Origin: an uncultured Candidatus Saccharibacteria bacterium
GTDB lineage: Bacteria > Patescibacteriota > Minisyncoccia > Phycocordibacterales > GWA1-40-21
Direction of reading: 5' to 3'
Length of the DNA: 46,549 bases
NCBI GenBank assembly: GCA_964416925.1
Contig: CAYQFQ010000001.1
Coordinates: 1-46,549, forward strand
Of the stretch, positions 18,769 through 27,135 are shown in pieces. Position 1 is the stretch's first letter; every line of letters starts with the position of its first letter. The notes under the pieces were generated by a model. The model saw nothing but the letters and a program-made list of their open reading frames with translations. It ran no database searches and was not told the DNA's origin. The position numbers and the translations under genes were made by a program.

Positions 18769-18839
18769 TGGGGGATCGTCTAATGGTAGGACTTCGCCCT
18801 CTGGAGGCGAGTATTTTGGTTCGAATCCAAGTCCCCCAG
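18769..18839 (+). tRNA. tRNA-Gln(CUG)
   Basis: Acceptor TGGGGGA/TCCCCCA, anticodon loop CTCTGGA, T arm TTTGG-TTCGAAT-CCAAG. Promoter TTGAAC-N17-TATTAT upstream. Confidence 0.9.
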
Positions 18840-19029
18840 CAAATTAAAGGCCGAAAGGCTTTTTTAATTTGCTGGGGGAAGTGAGTGATAGTATCACTCA
18901 CGCCTTGGATTCGAACGCCGGAATACATTTTTCTTAGCAAAGAAAAATATGAGGCGGTGCCTAGACTAATCATACGCGACGGCGTATGATTAAGCCGAAG
19001 GAGAAAGTGTATTCACGTATCCAAGTTCC
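18840..19029 (+). ncRNA. tRNA-Gln mirror trailer (cleanest member of the family)
   Basis: Hairpin 18841-18870 with GAAA loop. TGCTGGGGGA at 18870-18879 (anti-acceptor, 10/10). Hairpin 18880-18901. CTTGGATTCGAAC at 18904-18916 (anti-T, 13/13). U-rich stem with AGCA loop at 18927-18948. Hairpin 18967-18992. GGAGAAAGTGTATTCACGT. Closing ATCCAAG at 19019-19025. Confidence 0.55.
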
Positions 19030-19149
19030 ACAATAAACACTCATCAACATATTTGTCAGTACAAATTCTGTCACAACACACAAAGCAAATAAACCTAGAA
19101 ATTATCTGGTGAAAAAACAACAAGATTATCAGATTAAATAATTAAAATA

Positions 19150-20676
19150 ATGGAAACCCCAAAAGGACTTAGTTACAAAATAACAAATCCCGAATACAAA
19201 CTTAACCAAAAAGATTTACAAGAGGCAGAATCTCTTATTAAAGGAATTAATTATGACGAACGCACAACAAGACGGAGAACTGCTTTCATAGGTGACGGTT
19301 ATCGTTATGCATCGGAAGCTGTTCACAAACGTTGGGGATTAAACTATTGTTTTGTCGAGTTAGGACACGAAGAAACTAAAATTAGATATTTTTCTTCCTC
19401 AGTTAATAAACAAGCAGGGCATGTCTGGTGGAATAAGATTAAAAGCGACAATAATTTTATAGACAATATCATTAAAGAAACTACCAGTCTTCTTAAGCTG
19501 GGTGAGCTTAATAGGTATTTAGTTTTTAACGATAATTTTTCAAAATCAGAATTGAGCAAAAATATAATCAATTATCTTAATTGGACTGTTAAAATTCATG
19601 AATTCTCACAAATGTGGGCTGGTATCGATTATCTTAAGGAAATGGTTGACCATGAAGTGAGGGGCAGCTGGAATGGTACAGCAGACGAACTTGACAGGTT
19701 TATCTCTTCGATTTATCTTCCCTCTTCTATACCTCTACCAAACGCAGAAGAACGTGATTTATTGAAACTAGTACATCTAAGTGGTGATGACTTAAACTCA
19801 CAACTTGAAATTCATTTCAACAAATATAAGCATATTACCGTAAGGAATATAGATGACCCATCCTTGAGTTATGAATACTATTTGGATAGATTGCGAAGTT
19901 TAAAGATAGACAGTGAATATGAAAATATAAATAAAAAACTGAGTGATTTTGATAACCAGATAATTACAGCCGACAGACTTGTTAACGAGAGTAATTTACC
20001 AGAAAAAATAAAGAAAAGTATAAGTTTTATTAGATGGTTTTTATTCTTTCGCACTGAAATATCTGATTATTTCAGAATAACGAATGGTGTCTTTAGACCA
20101 GTTTTTTTGGCGCTATCAAAAATTTTTGGTGTATCATTTGAAGAAGTACTTAATATGACATACAAAGAGATTCTAGATTCGCTCGATATGGGATTATCAG
20201 ATAACCAAGAATTAAGAGAAACGATTTCAGATCGTACAAAAAATGGATATGGCTACTTAATCATTACACCACCGTACAAATCTTTTTTGGTTACAGGTAA
20301 AGAGATTGATGCTGTTGATATTTTTTTTAAGAAAAACACAAAGACAGAACAACCAAATACGATCAAAGGGAAATCGGCCTTTAAAGGAATTGTAACATCA
20401 ACAGCTAGAGTCATTATAGACAAATCGAAGGCAAATGAGTTAAAGGAGGGAGAAATTCTTGTTACACCAATGACTTCACCAGAGTTCTTTCATGTTATTA
20501 AAAAGTGTGCAGGTATCATTACTAATGAAGGAGGGATAACAACTCATGCGGCTATAATGGCCAGAGAGTTTAGTCTTCCTTGTGTCACAGGAACTCAAAT
20601 AGCCACGGAAATTATAAAAACCGGAGACAATATTACTCTTGATGCTGATACTGGTATTATTACCATTAACATTTAA
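19150..20676 (+). CDS. PEP-utilizing-enzyme mobile (phosphohistidine swivel) domain protein with a helical N-terminal region of about 400 aa and no ATP-grasp domain
   Basis: C-terminal GKSAFKGIVTSTARVI...EGEILVTPMTSPEF...GIITNEGGITTHAAIMAREFSLPCVTG is the PEP-utilizers domain with the TTH histidine. Confidence 0.75.
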   Translation: METPKGLSYKITNPEYKLNQKDLQEAESLIKGINYDERTTRRRTAFIGDGYRYASEAVHKRWGLNYCFVELGHEETKIRYFSSSVNKQAGHVWWNKIKSDNNFIDNIIKETTSLLKLGELNRYLVFNDNFSKSELSKNIINYLNWTVKIHEFSQMWAGIDYLKEMVDHEVRGSWNGTADELDRFISSIYLPSSIPLPNAEERDLLKLVHLSGDDLNSQLEIHFNKYKHITVRNIDDPSLSYEYYLDRLRSLKIDSEYENINKKLSDFDNQIITADRLVNESNLPEKIKKSISFIRWFLFFRTEISDYFRITNGVFRPVFLALSKIFGVSFEEVLNMTYKEILDSLDMGLSDNQELRETISDRTKNGYGYLIITPPYKSFLVTGKEIDAVDIFFKKNTKTEQPNTIKGKSAFKGIVTSTARVIIDKSKANELKEGEILVTPMTSPEFFHVIKKCAGIITNEGGITTHAAIMAREFSLPCVTGTQIATEIIKTGDNITLDADTGIITINI

Positions 20677-20767
20677 TAAGTTTTGATTTATTTTATATCA
20701 ATGATAATATGAGAATATTGAATATGGTTATTGACAGTTTTCTTGTTTAGGGCCTAAATAAATTATT

Positions 20768-21928
20768 ATGGAAAATCAAATAGAAAAAAAATTTATCAAT
20801 CCAGAAATTAACGATAAACCAGAATGGAAACTTATAGCTAGGTATGTAAAGTTTTTTCTAGAAAGCAGAACTATGGGAAGACGAGCCCATTCATGGGACC
20901 ATACTTTGTTCACAGCGAAACAATCTCTTGAAATTTTAGATAGATACCACAAAGACCAACCAGCTTCTGATGATGAGAGATTCTCAGTGTTCATCGCTTC
21001 CCTAATCCACGATATTATCCAACCAGATGATATAGTAAACAATGAATTATCTGAGCAAATGGAATCGGAATGGAATTTTAACAAAAGTGGCAGTGAATAT
21101 ACTGAGGGTGTAAAAGCATTAAATTATTTTGTTGATGAACTCAATAGGAAATCTGAAACTTTAAAAACTAGTGACGTCCAAGATAAATTACTAGAGATGT
21201 TAAACAGAAACAAAGATAATATATTAAAAATCTACACTGAAAAAGAAGCCAAGAATTTAAATGAATGGGAAAAAATTGGTGAGTCTTCTAAAGTCTTAAC
21301 TATCTCGGATATCCGTGGAAATTGGAATTCAGACGCAATTGTTAAATTGGCAGTAGCATATACATATATATATGGTAAAGACCCTTCAAAGAAATTAGAC
21401 GGAGACAACCTTATTGATTTACTGTCAACAAAAGTACTGAATAAATTAACTGTCTCGCCAAAAAATAAGGAGGACAACCCAGCCAAGTCGTTTTACTACG
21501 ATTTTTTTCATAATGAGAAAACAGTACAAGAAATCAAAGACATTTCACCAGAAACATATAAAGATTTTTATGAATCTATTAATCAACTCGAGGCCTTAAA
21601 ATTAGAAAAAGGATTACTTGACGATATGCCTGAAATTAAAGATATCTGCAAGAAAAACGGTATCGGAATATTTGGAATGGTTCATTTTTGGCATGATTTC
21701 GAAACTAAACATCACAATTCAACTTCACAAGAAGCGTATGCGGAATTTGTAAAATTTCTTTCTGAGAGGAAAGACGTAGATAGTATCATCGAGAAATATA
21801 ATCTTACTTCTGATGAAGCTGACATATTGAAAAGATTAGATATCGAGACAACAACAATCATGAATAAAATTAAGTCTTTTCAGGACGATCTTACTAATGC
21901 AGAAAACTATTTTGATGTTAAATTATGA
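20768..21928 (+). CDS. HD-superfamily phosphohydrolase-like protein
   Basis: HSWDH ... SLIHDI (H...HD) arrangement. The rest is unassigned. Confidence 0.5.
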   Translation: MENQIEKKFINPEINDKPEWKLIARYVKFFLESRTMGRRAHSWDHTLFTAKQSLEILDRYHKDQPASDDERFSVFIASLIHDIIQPDDIVNNELSEQMESEWNFNKSGSEYTEGVKALNYFVDELNRKSETLKTSDVQDKLLEMLNRNKDNILKIYTEKEAKNLNEWEKIGESSKVLTISDIRGNWNSDAIVKLAVAYTYIYGKDPSKKLDGDNLIDLLSTKVLNKLTVSPKNKEDNPAKSFYYDFFHNEKTVQEIKDISPETYKDFYESINQLEALKLEKGLLDDMPEIKDICKKNGIGIFGMVHFWHDFETKHHNSTSQEAYAEFVKFLSERKDVDSIIEKYNLTSDEADILKRLDIETTTIMNKIKSFQDDLTNAENYFDVKL

Positions 21929-23028
21929 TTAATTTAGAACAAATCAAAAAAGAAAATTACCAACGAGCATTCTTTTTTAAAAATCTCGGATATCTTTTTG
22001 TTGACTGTGCATTTGCTTGGTATAAAAATAGAGATTTTCTTGCCGTTTATCAAGATGGAATGCTAGGTCAATACATAAGTAACAATGCAGCAGATAAATG
22101 CCTAGAGGATGGGAAAAAAATTTTTAACAGCGAAAGAAATTTTCATCTATTTGAACAAGGTTTTCGTGAAGTAATAAAGGAAATAGAAGAATATTTACCA
22201 AAAGCTAAAAAGTTAGAAGAAGTAAAAATAAACGACTTTTTTGACCTAAGGGCCTTAACCAATAAAACCTTCTATTATTTTGAAAAAACAGAATTTTATT
22301 TTACCGACGGTTGTTATGCCGGGGAGATGAATAAACTACTACAAAAAAATTTATTAACACTTGGTGATGATTTGAAAGTAAAGGCCAGACCACTACTTGT
22401 AGAGTTACTAACAACAATTCCATATAAATTCACTGAAATAATTGCCCAGAAATACAATTTGGACAAAGAAGATATGAAATCTTATTCCTTTGATGAAATT
22501 CAAAAGTTAATACAGATAAATGAGCCGTTAGACCATAAAGTCATTGAAGAAAGAAAAGAATCATACGTGGTTTATTGCGAAAATAAATCAGTTATTTCAC
22601 AGGAGGGAGAAAATAAAAAAATAATATTAAAGAGATTTAAAGAACCAGACTATTCACAGACAACAGAATTTAAAGGTACTGTAGCTAGCAAGGGCAAAGT
22701 TATAGCTAAAGTAAAAGTCATATTACCCGAACTTCATCAAGACTACAATCTTTTTATAAAAAAGTTACATTCAATGGATATGGATCAGGGAGATATTTTG
22801 GTTACAGAGACAACCTCACCTGATTTTGTTCCTTTAATGAAGAAAGCTGGGGGTATTATTGCAAATCAAGGAGGCTTAAATTCCCATGCAGCGATTATGT
22901 CTAGAGAGCTTGGTGTTCCATGCTTGGTAGGAACATATCATGCCACTGATATTTTGAAAACTGGTGATTTGGTTGAACTTGATGCTAACAACGGAGTTGT
23001 TAGAATTTTAGAAAAAATTTCGAAATGA
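21925..23028 (+). CDS. PEP-utilizing-enzyme mobile domain protein (paralog of 19150-20676)
   Basis: C-terminal GTVASKGKVIAKVKVI...GDILVTETTSPDF...GIIANQGGLNSHAAIMSRELGVPCLVG. 4-nt overlap with the HD gene. Confidence 0.75.
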   Translation: MINLEQIKKENYQRAFFFKNLGYLFVDCAFAWYKNRDFLAVYQDGMLGQYISNNAADKCLEDGKKIFNSERNFHLFEQGFREVIKEIEEYLPKAKKLEEVKINDFFDLRALTNKTFYYFEKTEFYFTDGCYAGEMNKLLQKNLLTLGDDLKVKARPLLVELLTTIPYKFTEIIAQKYNLDKEDMKSYSFDEIQKLIQINEPLDHKVIEERKESYVVYCENKSVISQEGENKKIILKRFKEPDYSQTTEFKGTVASKGKVIAKVKVILPELHQDYNLFIKKLHSMDMDQGDILVTETTSPDFVPLMKKAGGIIANQGGLNSHAAIMSRELGVPCLVGTYHATDILKTGDLVELDANNGVVRILEKISK

Positions 23029-23062
23029 GATTCCGTCTTTATAAAACTCACACCTTGATTTT

Positions 23063-23590
23063 ATGCTCACAATAATTTTCGAAGCCCACGGCACAACATT
23101 TGATAACGAAGCACACCTATCATCAGGTCACAATGATGTGGCTCTTTCCCCTCTCGGTGAAAAACAATCTCTTGAAATGGGCGAACGATACAAAGACGAT
23201 CGTTTTGATGCTATTTTTGTATCAGATTTACAACGAGCGGTAAGAAGTGCCGAGATGGGTTTTGGAACTAAATGGCCTATTATAAAAGACGCCAGACTCC
23301 GCGAATGTAATTACGGAGACTTCACCCAACACCCAAGCGAAGAAGTTGATATACAGAAACCACTCAGGATCAATGAACCTTTTCCAAACGGTGAAAGCTA
23401 CACCCAAACAACAGAAAGAATGAAATCTTTTCTTGAAGATTTAAAAAAGAATTATGACGGAAAAAGAGTGATGATAATAGGTCACAGAGCCACACAATAC
23501 GGTCTTGATAATATAATCAATGACGTGTCACTTGAAAAACTCACAACAACTCATTTCAAATGGCAACCAGGATGGAAGTATAATTTCTAG
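23063..23590 (+). CDS. histidine phosphatase (phosphoglycerate mutase-like) family protein
   Basis: FEAHGTTFDN, LSPLGEKQ, SDLQRAVRSAE and IIGHRAT match the family. The usual RHG reads AHG. Confidence 0.7.
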   Translation: MLTIIFEAHGTTFDNEAHLSSGHNDVALSPLGEKQSLEMGERYKDDRFDAIFVSDLQRAVRSAEMGFGTKWPIIKDARLRECNYGDFTQHPSEEVDIQKPLRINEPFPNGESYTQTTERMKSFLEDLKKNYDGKRVMIIGHRATQYGLDNIINDVSLEKLTTTHFKWQPGWKYNF

Positions 23591-23669
23591 TCAAATAATT
23601 TTATTCCTCTATCAACTCAGTTCTAAAATCGAAATAGATTTATCTTTTAACTAGATATATAATAAATAA

Positions 23670-24395
23670 ATGGAACAAATAACTATTAAGGAAACTAATC
23701 TCGAACAAGTTTATAGGCATTCTGAAATCGGAGACTTAGAGGAAGACGCAACATCCTTAATTGAGAAATTAAAAGATAAAATTGATCAAGGATTCTATAC
23801 ACTCTTAGTGAGCGACGAAACGGGAGGGCGATTACCAACCCTTCTTGTTAGATCAATCATAAAAAAAATACATCCTAAAGCTAATTTACAAACGCTTTTT
23901 ATTAATGGAGGAAAAATGCTCCATATGTTAATACAAGACGACAAGCCTGATGAAGAAACAAGCTTCACTGAATATATAAAATTCATCACCGAAGAACACA
24001 ATAATGCATTGGTGGTAACTCAGGTAATGAGATCGGGATCGTCTTTGGCAATTTTAGCTTCAATGTTAAAAAATAGTGGTTGCAACCATGTTGATGTCGC
24101 AACAATTAGATCTGTTTTCGACGATATTATATACAGCGAGGACAAAAACCGAATTGGAAGTGGCGAGGTCTTTATCGGAAAAGAATATGCAGATACAAAT
24201 GAGTTTGATGATAAAAATAGAGAACTATCAGGTGTAACAAAAGTTGAAGGTTCGGTTGTCCATCCTAACTCAATAAAAAAACTTGTTGGTGAAGACGAAG
24301 CAAAAAAACAACAAATACAAGCAACAATAAATGAAGCTCGTGATGATATCAAGATTATGGCGGATCGAATTTACAGAAAAGTTTGGCATAAATAA
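23670..24395 (+). CDS. phosphoribosyltransferase-like protein (degenerate PRPP loop)
   Basis: LLVSDETGGRLPTLLV and ALVVTQVMRSGSSLAIL resemble type I PRTase motifs, but the acidic pair is TQ. Confidence 0.5.
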   Translation: MEQITIKETNLEQVYRHSEIGDLEEDATSLIEKLKDKIDQGFYTLLVSDETGGRLPTLLVRSIIKKIHPKANLQTLFINGGKMLHMLIQDDKPDEETSFTEYIKFITEEHNNALVVTQVMRSGSSLAILASMLKNSGCNHVDVATIRSVFDDIIYSEDKNRIGSGEVFIGKEYADTNEFDDKNRELSGVTKVEGSVVHPNSIKKLVGEDEAKKQQIQATINEARDDIKIMADRIYRKVWHK

Positions 24396-24399
24396 CTAA

Positions 24400-25173
24400 A
24401 TGAAACTAATAACTTTAAACACATGGGGTGGTAGAGCAGGAAAAGAAGGTCTCCTGTCATTTTTTGATAAATATAAATGCGACACGGATGTGTTTTGTTT
24501 ACAAGAAATATGGTCTGCTCCCCACGAACATCTCGAAGGGCTAAATGTTGGTGGAAAGAAACTAGACCATAAAAATATCATGGTTCATGGTGTTCAGGAC
24601 ATCTCTACTCTATTGTGTGATCATAATAAGTATTTCAGACCTCACCTTGCTGACCATTATGGGATAATGATACTTATTGATAATAAATTTGAAATTGTTG
24701 ATGAAGGTGAAGTTTTTGTATATAAACAAAAAGGTTACATACCTGACGGCGATGTTGGTAATCACGCAAGAAATATTCAATATGTCACCACAACATTAAA
24801 TGGTAAGCCAATAACTATAATAAATTTTCATGGATTGTGGAACGGCAAAGGCAAAACAGACACAGAAGACAGATTAAACCAGTCAAAGAATATTATAGAA
24901 TTCACAAAAACCCTAAAGGGAGATTTTATATTGTGCGGGGACTTTAATCTCCTCCCCTCCACAGAAAGCTTAAAACTTTTTGAATCCCACGGACTAAGAA
25001 ATCTAATTAAGGAATACAATATAACTTCTACCAGAACTTCGTTTTATGAGAAACCAGAAAAATTTGCTGACTACGTCTTTGCGACAGAAGGAATAAAGAT
25101 AAATGACTTTAAAGTACTCCCCGATGAAATCTCCGACCATGCTCCCATATTTTTAGATTTTGATATTATTTAA
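24400..25173 (+). CDS. endonuclease/exonuclease/phosphatase (EEP) family protein
   Basis: TLNTWGG, FCLQEI, CGDFNL and SDHAPI motifs. Confidence 0.8.
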   Translation: MKLITLNTWGGRAGKEGLLSFFDKYKCDTDVFCLQEIWSAPHEHLEGLNVGGKKLDHKNIMVHGVQDISTLLCDHNKYFRPHLADHYGIMILIDNKFEIVDEGEVFVYKQKGYIPDGDVGNHARNIQYVTTTLNGKPITIINFHGLWNGKGKTDTEDRLNQSKNIIEFTKTLKGDFILCGDFNLLPSTESLKLFESHGLRNLIKEYNITSTRTSFYEKPEKFADYVFATEGIKINDFKVLPDEISDHAPIFLDFDII

Positions 25174-25203
25174 ATTTGTTGTCACTTCAAACTTCATCGC
25201 CCT

Positions 25204-26283
25204 ATGCCCCTTCACATCACCAACCCTATCCTATCTTCTCAAATATTCATAGCACTTTTTGTCTTGTGTTTACTATTTTCTTTACGAAGAAAAACCACCG
25301 AAGGCTTATCACTTTCTGTGACTCAAGATTTAAAAGGCTTTGCAATACTAGCTATCATTTTTGCACATATTGGATATTTTCTTGTTAGTGACAATAATTT
25401 CTTATATCCTCTCTCAATACTTGCTGGGGTAGGTGTCAATCTTTTTTTGTTCTTATCTGGTTATGGACTAACAATAAGTTCACTTACAAAAGATTTTTCA
25501 TTAATAACATATTTCCGTCACCGCTTGTCTCGCTTATATATTCCTTACTGGCTTATTGCGATTGTCTTCCTTCTTCTTGATTTTATAATTTTGGGTATTT
25601 TCCGAGATTGGGGCACAACTTCTCAGATAATTCTTGGATTTATTCCGCGCGCAGACATATTTTTAGACTTTAACTCTCCTCTTTGGTATTTCACTTTCAC
25701 TATCTTTTATTCCTTAATATTTCCTTTTGTTTTTTCAAAAAAATATCCATGGATCTCTGCAATTATTTTGTATTTAATTGGCCTAATTCTCGTCTTCTCT
25801 AATTTACCAATCATACAAGAAGTGATACACCTATATAGAGTACACATTTTAGCCTTCCCCTTAGGAGTCTTACTCGCTGGTCTAATATTTAAATACAATT
25901 TACTTGCAATCCAAGCAAAGGAAATACTTACCAACACTAGATGGAAATATTATACATTTGTCGGCCTACTTCTTTGTACAATATATTACACTGCTATTCA
26001 CTCTAACGTTGGAGGGTATCCATTATTTGAAGAGCTAACAAGTTTGATTACTATCGGAGCACTTATACTACTATTTATTATTTCAAAAATAGAAAGCCGT
26101 TTATTTTTCTGGTTTGGAATATTTTCATACGAGATTTATCTATTCCATTGGCCAATTCTTTCTCGCTTTGATATTTTTTACAGATTTATCCCTGCTTGGC
26201 TTGCTACTATTCTCTATCTAATATTATTTATACTATTGGGTTGGGCAACTAACGTTATCGTAAAAAAAATTATTAAGTCGTAA
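25204..26283 (+). CDS. acyltransferase family 3 (OafA-like) membrane protein
   Basis: About 10 TM segments with N-terminal GFAILAIIFAHIG. Confidence 0.7.
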   Translation: MPLHITNPILSSQIFIALFVLCLLFSLRRKTTEGLSLSVTQDLKGFAILAIIFAHIGYFLVSDNNFLYPLSILAGVGVNLFLFLSGYGLTISSLTKDFSLITYFRHRLSRLYIPYWLIAIVFLLLDFIILGIFRDWGTTSQIILGFIPRADIFLDFNSPLWYFTFTIFYSLIFPFVFSKKYPWISAIILYLIGLILVFSNLPIIQEVIHLYRVHILAFPLGVLLAGLIFKYNLLAIQAKEILTNTRWKYYTFVGLLLCTIYYTAIHSNVGGYPLFEELTSLITIGALILLFIISKIESRLFFWFGIFSYEIYLFHWPILSRFDIFYRFIPAWLATILYLILFILLGWATNVIVKKIIKS

Positions 26284-26383
26284 TATATAAATTTCATAGT
26301 ACCAGTAATAAAGAAAGCAATCCGTCTTAATTAATCTGGTTTGCTTCGTCATTTCATTCCTCGCAAAGACAGAATAAAAAAAA

Positions 26384-26419
26384 GGAGCCCCTTCCGCGCA
26401 ACAAATGCGGTGGGGCTCC
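26384..26419 (-). terminator. rho-independent terminator of the GC-rich minus-strand unit
   Basis: GGAGCCCC..GGGGCTCC stem followed on the minus strand by T8. Confidence 0.7.
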
Positions 26420-26525
26420 GATGGACTCTTCTTCAACCGATGGTTCTTATTCTGATGTTACTCAGTAGTGACCTTCAGTCTAGCCTGTGTCCTATTGGGC
26501 TTTTGAGACTCGTGCGGCCCGCCCG

Positions 26526-26654
26526 TTACTCGTTCTTGACGAGGTGCCGGATGGTGCACGTGGCCGGGATGGCGGCGCCGATCGCGATGGAGGTGGAATT
26601 GGCCGAGCTCTGGCGAATGGTGATGCCGATCTGACCCGAATTGAACTGGCTCAT
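26526..26654 (-). CDS. possible 42-aa sORF (not in the ORF track)
   Basis: Translation: MSQFNSGQIGITIRQSSANSTSIAIGAAIPATCTIRHLVKNE. Weak SD (GGAAAG). About 60% GC. May instead be part of an ncRNA. Confidence 0.3.
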   Translation of the reverse strand: MSQFNSGQIGITIRQSSANSTSIAIGAAIPATCTIRHLVKNE

Positions 26655-26827
26655 GGCTTTCCGTAATTATCAACAGCATAAAACTATGGCTATAAACAAG
26701 GAGTCGTTTAAAGAATTAATAAGGGGTTGGTTCCGTAGAACCAGCCCCAGTTTGCCTGACAGCACTTCAAGTCTCAATCTTGTCTCAAATGAGCTTTACG
26801 CACCATCAAGTGGGTTCGCCGATTGAT

Positions 26828-26983
26828 TTAGAACACGACCACCTTGGCCTGACCCGAATCAAAGGCGCCGCTTGCCGTTTCGATCGTCTTGCCCGCCTCG
26901 TGGGACATCGTGATCGCCGCTGCCTTGATGAACATCGCGCATCCGCCACCCGAATCAAACCGCCACTGACATACCTTCCTCAT
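26828..26983 (-). CDS. possible 51-aa sORF (internal start of the 80-aa track ORF)
   Basis: GAGGAGAAGG SD 5 nt before the ATG. Translation: MRKVCQWRFDSGGGCAMFIKAAAITMSHEAGKTIETASGAFDSGQAKVVVF. Promoter TTGAAC-N16-TATAAT at about 27030-27057. Followed by hairpin GGGGCTGG..CCAACCCC. Confidence 0.4.
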   Translation of the reverse strand: MRKVCQWRFDSGGGCAMFIKAAAITMSHEAGKTIETASGAFDSGQAKVVVF

Positions 26984-27135
26984 ACTCGCCTTCTCCTCGT
27001 TTACCCCCAAAACAACTTCAGGGGTATGTTTAGTCTTTATTATATACAATCGATTAATTCGTTCAACCATAAGTTATCAACATCATAATTACTTATAAGA
27101 GATAATTAATCTTTATACAAATCAATGGTAGACTG

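Follow-up and report, generated by a model that had tools for sequence, protein, structure and literature searches.

Swivel-domain proteins in a variable slot beside tRNA-Gln of a patescibacterial genome: probable acceptor modules of a split dikinase type

In this work we have analysed seven neighbouring genes (positions 19150-26283) in a stretch of 46,549 nucleotides (nt) from the genome of an uncultured Candidatus Saccharibacteria bacterium (Patescibacteriota); this whole stretch is called the window below. A preliminary description of the DNA had proposed that the seven genes form a candidate uncharacterised phosphoryl-transfer or modification system, built around two proteins which carry the phosphohistidine swivel domain of phosphoenolpyruvate (PEP)-utilizing enzymes. 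According to our analysis they do not make up a single conserved system. In the interpretation which we consider probable, the block is a patchwork within a variable slot, in which the two swivel proteins, P1 and P3, are acceptor (H-type) modules charged with phosphate in trans, the two hydrolases HD-386 and HP-175 are their plausible partners and the remaining genes are unrelated neighbours. At most, these two phosphatase-type neighbours of P1 and P3 appear to be functionally linked to them. The labels of the proteins are given in the following list, with lengths in amino acids (aa); numbers beginning with C denote contigs of the same assembly and those beginning with L denote loci fetched from other genomes.

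19150-20676, plus strand: P1, 508 aa, putative H-type (acceptor) module with a helical domain resembling the rifampin (RIF)-binding domain at residues ~1-420
20443-20655, plus strand: swivel domain of P1, with the His466 codon at 20545-20547
20768-21928, plus strand: HD-386, 386 aa, all-helical orphan, probable HD-superfamily phosphohydrolase
21925-23028, plus strand: P3, 367 aa, putative short H-type module with a truncated binding domain
22783-22995, plus strand: swivel domain of P3, with the His321 codon at 22885-22887
23063-23590, plus strand: HP-175, 175 aa, histidine phosphatase of the His_Phos_1 branch, Arg-less subfamily (A-H9-G)
23670-24395, plus strand: PRT-241, 241 aa, rare, with a remnant (VVTQVMRSGSS) of the phosphoribosyl pyrophosphate (PRPP) loop of phosphoribosyltransferases (PRTases)
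24400-25173, plus strand: EEP-257, 257 aa, EEP-family phosphodiesterase or nuclease, a patchy accessory gene
25204-26283, plus strand: AT3-359, 359 aa, membrane acyltransferase of family 3, the right landmark of the variable slot
18769-18840, plus strand: tRNA-Gln (CTG), the left landmark of the variable slot (ARAGORN; Rfam tRNA, 56 bits)
18841-19030, plus strand: trailer of tRNA-Gln, conserved and structured, the left edge of the insert, outside the protein system
26284-27135, no strand: GC-rich spacer (GC ~0.45) with no convincing gene, outside the system

A patchwork of genes beside tRNA-Gln

The layout of the block is compact. According to the listing of open reading frames (ORFs), all seven genes are co-directional on the plus strand while the rest of the window is mostly minus-strand, the gaps between them measure 4-91 nt, and the stop codon of HD-386 and the start codon of P3 share the letters ATGA, which confirms the 4-nt overlap noticed earlier. 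The block also begins and ends as the preliminary description had stated, after tRNA-Gln with its trailer on the left and at a GC-rich stretch on the right (GC 0.448 at 26-27 kb against ~0.33 across the block). Together with the lack of an internal terminator-like site on the plus strand and with phosphate-related chemistry in five of the seven genes, this arrangement could be taken to mean that all seven belong to one undescribed phosphoryl-transfer, modification or defence system with a common substrate. We regard this as very improbable, since the genes do not keep together in other genomes. To survey the order we used 121 genomes including our own, i.e. 120 other genera, and in none of these were any two of the seven found as neighbours. 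HD-386 had no homolog there, and the N-terminal regions of P1 and P3 gave weak matches only (~25% identity for P1; 24-35% over short stretches for P3). Orthologs of HP-175 were found in nine of the 120 genera, distant homologs of PRT-241 in three, matches to EEP-257 in twelve, mostly without a swivel array, and matches to AT3-359 in five, with orthologs in four. The 20-kb surroundings of the nine HP-175 orthologs held no other gene of the block except one swivel gene 6 kb away. For PRT-241 we found only three close homologs, one with an EEP-family gene 1.7 kb away and another amid housekeeping genes.

The same was seen from the side of P1. In 80 loci related to P1, which we fetched and which amount to 1.2 Mb, an HD gene occurred once, an EEP-like gene once and an HP-like gene three times; PRT and AT3 genes never occurred, so that PRT-241 showed no link to swivel genes within these loci. 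A genome of the same genus keeps AT3 without the other six genes at the site, and PADLOC, run with all seven proteins at E values up to 0.1, matched no family, which answers in the negative the suggestion that the block be screened as a defence system. The dedicated seven-gene system is thus not supported by co-localisation in the 120 genera or in the 80 loci, and the absence of co-conservation is the very outcome which the preliminary description had named as speaking against its proposal. We recommend that a seven-gene 'system' should not be propagated in annotation. What recurs is the association of swivel and ATP-grasp genes and, more loosely, of swivel and phosphatase genes. A promoter and terminator scan of the block gave signals at background level, so no operon boundaries can be drawn from it.

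The nature of the site became apparent from two related genomes. In the same-genus locus L115 the upstream genes are collinear with those of the window (67-96% identity), and the AT3 ortholog (81% identity) comes right after tRNA-Gln and its trailer, with nothing at this site that corresponds to the six genes at 19150-25173. In the same-family locus L116 (5710-9995) the slot contains an EEP ortholog (60%), tRNA-Gln and, across the tRNA from the EEP gene, a swivel protein (498 aa) that belongs to another subfamily; ftsX and ftsE come next. The synteny of these two loci indicates that the region beside tRNA-Gln is a variable slot and that AT3 belongs to the backbone. The idea of an accessory island therefore holds for the six genes at 19150-25173 and has to be given up for AT3-359, a conserved backbone gene outside the insert. 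It seems that modules are exchanged at a fixed tRNA-Gln site. The insert encodes neither an integrase nor a transposase, and when direct repeats of the att type were sought on both sides of 19.0-25.2 kb, short chance matches were the sole result; the difference between the two genomes of the genus may be due to insertion or to deletion.

In our reading, the three genes downstream of HP-175 are unrelated neighbours of the swivel modules. For two of them the earlier domain assignments were confirmed with Pfam, EEP-257 as a phosphodiesterase or nuclease (Exo_endo_phos, E 6e-18) and AT3-359 as a family 3 membrane O-acyltransferase (Acyl_transf_3, E 8e-25). The third, PRT-241, had been described as a PRTase-like protein whose PRPP-loop acidic pair reads TQ. 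The loop VVTQVMRSGSS is indeed present, but the protein has no Pfam hit and its matches are weak, namely adenine PRTase at E 0.04 and the PRPP loop of uracil PRTase, with TQ in place of the acidic pair, at E 0.36.

P1 and P3 as acceptor modules of a split dikinase type

Both proteins end in a swivel domain (Pfam PEP-utilizers, PF00391), which covers residues 432-502 of P1 (E 3e-25) and residues 287-357 of P3 (E 1.6e-25). Their motifs, GGITTH466AAIM and GGLNSH321AAIM, match the GGxT[S/C]HAA-type signature with the histidine near the C terminus, and across 30 orthologs of P1 the GG.T.HAAI motif and His466 are invariant. These orthologs are ~500 aa long, share 35-55% identity and are common in Patescibacteria metagenomes; the orthologs of P3 are ~365 aa long and share 50-75% identity. 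The two proteins had been described as paralogs, each with a C-terminal swivel domain. The domain is present in both, and their likeness is confined to the C-terminal ~190 residues. The origin of P1 and P3 from a recent tandem duplication was rejected, because the identity over these 190 residues is 34% and each protein has its own separate set of conserved orthologs.

What do the N-terminal regions resemble? A sequence profile of the P1 orthologs matched only swivel domains in the PDB (8a8e, E 8e-34), and since the binding domain thus has no sequence match there, a comparison of structures was needed. An AlphaFold2 (AF2) model built from the alignment of the 30 orthologs reached a predicted local distance difference test (pLDDT) score of 90.9, and its best match in the PDB by Foldseek was rifampin phosphotransferase RPH-Lm (5fbu, E 4e-13, TMq 0.50, ~575 aligned columns). 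In NCBIfam, residues 278-506 of P1 align to positions 645-867 of an RPH-like model. On the strength of this model P1 appears to be a RIF-binding-like domain joined to a swivel domain, which is how the H component is built in split dikinases of the RPH type, and P3, to judge from its sequence, appears to be a shorter version of the same architecture. The suggestion that the two are substrate-binding plus swivel modules as in rifampin phosphotransferase is in this way borne out for P1 and probable for P3. Borne out, too, is the statement that the block contains no ATP-grasp domain: Pfam detected neither PPDK_N nor PEP-utilizers_C in it. We also considered whether P1 and P3 could be pieces of a split housekeeping PEP synthase, an outcome that the preliminary description had regarded as fatal to its own proposal. 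This was rejected, as neither a PPDK_N nor a TIM-barrel fragment is present and the fold of P1 is RPH-like and not that of a PEP synthase or pyruvate phosphate dikinase (PPDK) fragment.

Comparison with known enzymes gives P1 and P3 a place among them. RPH (RPH-Lm; 5fbu, 5hv1) is the best structural match to P1 over the binding and swivel domains, and the catalytic histidine lies less than 50 residues from the C terminus; in RPH, however, one polypeptide also includes an ATP-grasp domain at the N terminus, which P1 and P3 lack, and the identity is ~15%. PEP synthase and PPDK have a homologous swivel domain, as the match of P1 to 8a8e shows, whereas P1 and P3 have neither PPDK_N nor the PEP/pyruvate-binding TIM barrel of these enzymes. 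The closest parallel is found in the two-component small-molecule dikinases HpeHI, CreHI and PpsAB, the last of which is a phenylphosphate synthase; in these, separate ATP-grasp and binding-plus-swivel proteins work together without forming a stable complex (PMC12167813). P1 and P3 are split in the same way, with an RPH-type binding domain, a C-terminal swivel of the GGxT[S/C]HAA type and the ATP-grasp encoded separately, and P1 orthologs adjoin a stand-alone ATP-grasp protein of ~315-335 aa. The differences from these systems are several. Here 23 H-type genes with hyperdiverse binding domains stand against 3-5 ATP-grasp modules, no ATP-grasp gene adjoins P1 or P3, histidine phosphatases and a phosphodiesterase-like HD protein accompany the modules, and aromatic catabolism is lacking in the hosts, which are ultra-small Patescibacteria and DPANN archaea. 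P1 (508 aa) and P3 (367 aa) also appear to be shorter than HpeH, whose catalytic histidine is residue 581 (PMC12167813).

Evidence for the partner of these modules comes from the 80 P1-related loci, which contain 283 swivel domains and in which the only genes that recur as partners are other swivel genes and, in 33 of the 80 loci, an ATP-grasp gene. Of the 18 loci with a true P1 ortholog, 10 have an ATP-grasp gene immediately upstream of it and one more has such a gene no more than 900 nt away (11/18); L018 and L019 likewise have the P1 ortholog downstream of ATP-grasp. The ATP-grasp protein beside a P1 ortholog may be stand-alone (~315-335 aa), fused to one swivel module (~690 aa) or fused to four modules. 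Single ORFs with one ATP-grasp and four binding-plus-swivel modules were found in L040 (5177-10468, 1763 aa) and L047 (7316-13612, 2098 aa), and by the Rosetta-stone argument such fusions indicate that a single ATP-grasp cooperates with several modules. P3 orthologs also occur within arrays having an ATP-grasp gene, and their usual neighbour is a family of 271-279 aa with histidine-phosphatase-like motifs. In the window, P1 and P3 have neither the ATP-grasp gene nor the usual 271-279-aa partner nearby. Located away from any ATP-grasp gene, they offer a clean test of whether one charger serves acceptors in trans.

P1 has become detached from the ATP-grasp gene found in front of its orthologs, which might also mean that P1 and P3 need no dikinase partner and take their phosphate from PEP or from a phosphorylated metabolite. 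Such a transfer has a precedent in HpeH, which alone moves phosphate from 4-phosphoacetophenone to acetovanillone (PMC12167813), and it would accord with the excess of swivel domains over ATP-grasp modules in the genome studied here, which is ~5-9 to 1. Yet the proteins have no PEP-binding TIM-barrel domain, their orthologs are almost always linked or fused to ATP-grasp and the genome itself encodes ATP-grasp proteins, so that we consider transfer independent of ATP-grasp to be improbable.

Candidate phosphatases and the proposed phosphate cycle

HD-386 belongs to a tiny family, for which we obtained eight hits in 1.84 billion representative proteins. The preliminary description assigned it to the HD-type phosphohydrolases on the basis of the motif H..H...HD. 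The motif itself is largely invariant: H41, S42, W43, D44, H45 and H81 do not vary in the family, D82 is present in seven of the eight members (Glu in one partial member), and our reading of the alignment suggests that D181 is conserved as well. The match to the Pfam HD family, on the other hand, stays below the threshold (13.2 bits for HD-386 against a cut-off of 22); six of the eight members match it, with a best E value of 0.0026, and three of the eight match PDEase_I. A profile search of the PDB gave the phosphodiesterases (PDEs) PDE5 and PDE10 on top, at E 0.25 and aligned over the H41...H81 motif. The AF2 model is all-helical (pLDDT 85), and Foldseek matched it mostly to class I PDE catalytic domains, with probabilities up to 0.98, template modelling (TM) scores of 0.35-0.42 and E values above 0.1. 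In common with these domains HD-386 appears to have the H-x3-H ... HD ... D pattern and an all-helical fold of ~300 residues; it differs from them in that the second histidine of 'HDxxH' is Gln (HDIIQP), and the matches are below significance. With moderate confidence we take HD-386 to be a probable PDE-like metal-dependent hydrolase of the HD superfamily. Kinship of HD-386 with unnamed array genes of 250-290 aa was tried and rejected, since phmmer found no similarity.

In all three contexts examined HD-386 or its homolog stands beside swivel sequence, a count which has to be read against the small size of the family. In addition to the window, these are L030, in which an HD-386 homolog comes right after a P1 ortholog (55% identity), and L110, in which the homolog P0096 is followed by a swivel remnant without the catalytic histidine. 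We noted that this remnant, downstream of the closest full-length homolog of HD-386, is a 42-aa ORF at the contig end (2076-2201) which corresponds to the C-terminal half of a swivel domain and reads YATIVSRE for HAAIMSRE.

The second hydrolase, HP-175, is a clear member of the histidine phosphatase superfamily (Pfam His_Phos_1, E 1.5e-29), and its catalytic residue His9 is conserved in the subfamily. As described before, its RHG motif reads AHG, and we found that the arginine is missing from the whole subfamily, all 12 members of which have A, V, P or S at this position. This replacement distinguishes HP-175 from the superfamily at large, SixA included, while the catalytic histidine, the second arginine, the glutamate and the second histidine are retained. 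SixA acts on phospho-histidine. In the genome studied, all three stand-alone Pfam-positive His_Phos_1 genes (HP-175, C5:9242-9886 and C25:5894-6532) abut swivel genes, and the same is true of two divergent proteins of 279 and 290 aa with RH...R...GH motifs. The 80 P1-related loci contain 14 His_Phos-like genes, eight of them within 271 nt of a swivel ORF. Given a background of ~0.5 per Mb, itself a rough count of stand-alone hits in genomes of the order, the enrichment of His_Phos genes beside swivel genes would be roughly 20-fold.

Two further observations concern this superfamily. Two related families of 271-290 aa, which have RH...R...GHS motifs and no significant Pfam hit, are located directly beside swivel modules, typically beside P3-type modules or after an ATP-grasp and swivel gene (C5:12555-13394 and C25:3432-4304 in our assembly; L111 6921-7736, L113 9122-9937 and L016 11528-12385 elsewhere). 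A His_Phos_1 domain is also embedded in a class I aminoacyl-tRNA synthetase (tRNA-synt_1, Anticodon_1) at C13:16360-19446, at L016 3925-6723 and in most genera of the order, in an ORF of ~930-1290 aa, mostly ~1100-1250 aa.

Could the first four genes, then, form an operon of their own? P1, HD-386, P3 and HP-175 (19150-23590) might phosphorylate and hydrolyse, with the hydrolases either resetting phospho-histidine in the manner of SixA or recycling products, and with the three downstream genes unrelated to them. The adjacency of P1 and HD is kept in L030, HD-386 overlaps P3 by 4 nt, the HD homolog in L110 is followed by a swivel remnant, and His_Phos genes are enriched beside swivel genes and occur inside arrays with P3 orthologs in L111 and L112. 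However, the HD family has only eight known members, P3 orthologs normally have a member of the 271-279-aa family as their partner instead of HD or HP-175, HP-175 has its nearest orthologs in swivel-free genomes, and the four genes never recur together elsewhere. We view such an operon as a tentative possibility, somewhat on the unlikely side. The theme of phosphate transfer and removal which the preliminary description saw in the whole block retains some support for the first four genes.

The course of events that we favour, a patchwork with modules charged in trans, can be outlined as follows. An ATP-grasp (PPDK_N) protein encoded on another contig would transfer a phosphate of ATP to the catalytic histidine, which is His466 in P1 and His321 in P3. 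As in RPH and HpeHI, the swivel domain would then hand this phosphate to a small molecule bound by the N-terminal domain, and HD-386 and HP-175 may strip the phosphate from the product or from the phospho-histidine. HD-386 and the Arg-less HP-175 are in this sense candidates for the reverse step. Several points weigh against this scheme. PPDK_N was not found anywhere in the 46.5-kb window, so that charging in trans is purely what we infer, as are the small-molecule substrates and both roles of the hydrolases. In NCBIfam residues 177-362 of P3 align to positions 694-864 of Rph, and its binding domain is only partly alignable. The HD assignment of HD-386 is sub-threshold by every method. Orthologs of HP-175 with 78-83% identity are present in five genera without any swivel domain, and with its closest relatives in swivel-free genomes the adjacency of HP-175 to P3 may be coincidental. 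As for the role of the modules, our data are compatible with nutrient trapping as well as with the inactivation of toxins.

Swivel modules in the genome and across the order, and the flanks of the slot

The two modules in the window are part of a much larger set. The assembly (748,927 bp in 57 contigs, 98% complete) encodes 26 PF00391 domains in 23 ORFs, which occupy 35.5 kb or 4.7% of its length. Most of them form tandem arrays on C5 and C18, and smaller clusters are found on C6 and C25. PPDK_N is limited to C25 (698 aa, grasp plus swivel), C17 and fragments at the very ends of contigs C21, C33 and C6, which amounts to 3-5 ATP-grasp modules for the 26 swivel domains. Two of the ORFs, at C18:7360-10680 (1106 aa) and C6:30979-33978 (999 aa), consist of two to three fused modules without a grasp. 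The binding domains are very diverse. For the N-terminal region of P1 phmmer finds no paralog in the genome and for that of P3 a single one, at C5:13403-14503 (54% identity across 280 N-terminal residues), and 272 single-swivel proteins from this genome and the related loci fall into 168 clusters at 33% identity and 80% coverage.

Within the order such sets are rare. No swivel domain was found in 83 of the 120 other genera, nor in the sampled genome of the same family (G005), and ~26 of the 120 have a single swivel domain, mostly in an ORF of ~800 aa that we take to be PEP synthase. The few genomes with arrays have 13, 12, 6 and 4 copies, so that the 26 of our genome are the highest number. 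Nearly all genomes of the order with at least three swivel domains in arrays have an ATP-grasp on the contig of the array, whether that contig carries the whole of the array or a part of it.

Similar arrays were encountered outside the bacteria. DPANN archaeal contigs, among them L083 (9896-18319) and L095, carry swivel arrays together with stand-alone ATP-grasp, and in L083 five modules and a 312-aa PPDK_N protein adjoin the gene for topoisomerase VI subunit A; contigs labelled Woesearchaeota contain P1 orthologs at ~40% identity. This distribution suggests that swivel arrays have been exchanged between ultra-small bacteria and archaea.

Split RPH-type dikinases have been defined only recently, from three aromatic-catabolic enzymes, and in the present genome the same design takes the form of a battery. 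In the literature on PEP-utilizers or swivel arrays in Patescibacteria or the candidate phyla radiation (CPR) we found no description of such arrays; the only pertinent finds were the HpeHI paper and a passing count of rph genes in a survey of the CPR resistome. This multi-module swivel battery with linked phosphatases is an undescribed variant of the split RPH-like dikinases. What might it serve? One answer would be resistance, each module inactivating a different antibiotic or toxin by phosphorylation rather than trapping nutrients. The best structural match of P1 is an antibiotic-inactivating enzyme, the spread of the modules is patchy as expected of accessory genes, their binding domains are extremely diverse, and a survey of the CPR resistome reported rph-like hits in CPR genomes (PMC8651080). 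Against this, the subfamilies are well conserved across distant lineages (40-55% identity for P1, 50-75% for P3), and the linked phosphatases would reverse an inactivating phosphorylation; we find a role in detoxification doubtful. Bolder still is the idea of a hub-and-spoke network in Patescibacteria and DPANN archaea, in which a few ATP-grasp chargers would serve more than 20 hyperdiverse acceptors, P1 and P3 being two of the spokes. Dedicated enzymes for the removal of phosphate, namely Arg-less and divergent histidine phosphatases and a new family of PDE-like HD proteins, would go with the acceptors, and the network would trap or process many different small molecules obtained from hosts, replacing classical transporters and kinases. 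We mention it as a speculation that is unlikely to be right.

The genes on the flanks of the slot are of ordinary kinds. Upstream there are genes for a DsbD-like membrane protein, a thioredoxin-like protein, a methyltransferase and a transporter of the major facilitator superfamily, and downstream for a VTT/DedA protein, FtsX, FtsE and a peptide-chain release factor (PCRF and RF-1 domains). In a search of the whole window with Rfam only tRNAs reached the gathering score. The trailer of tRNA-Gln has no Rfam family at that score, its best sub-threshold match being IMES-2 (E 0.0023). Its ~190 nt can be aligned with L115 (1825-2033, minus strand) and with the same-family locus L117 (19420-19628, minus strand), and several of its hairpins persist through double-sided base changes, which were seen in 18 of the 45 predicted pairs. 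It contains a T-arm-like sequence, GGATTCGAAC, and a repeat of the tRNA acceptor sequence, CTGGGGGAAG, and it looks like an undescribed structured RNA or a tRNA-derived element.

On the other side of the block, the spacer at 26284-27135 has no Rfam match. It contains two short ORFs on the minus strand (42 and ~51 aa) which share the motif F-[DN]-S-G-Q. A 70-nt element in it (26315-26383) recurs with 87-90% identity on C2 (6848-6916) and C10 (23708-23756), and it is followed by a GC hairpin, GGAGCCCC...GGGGCTCC.

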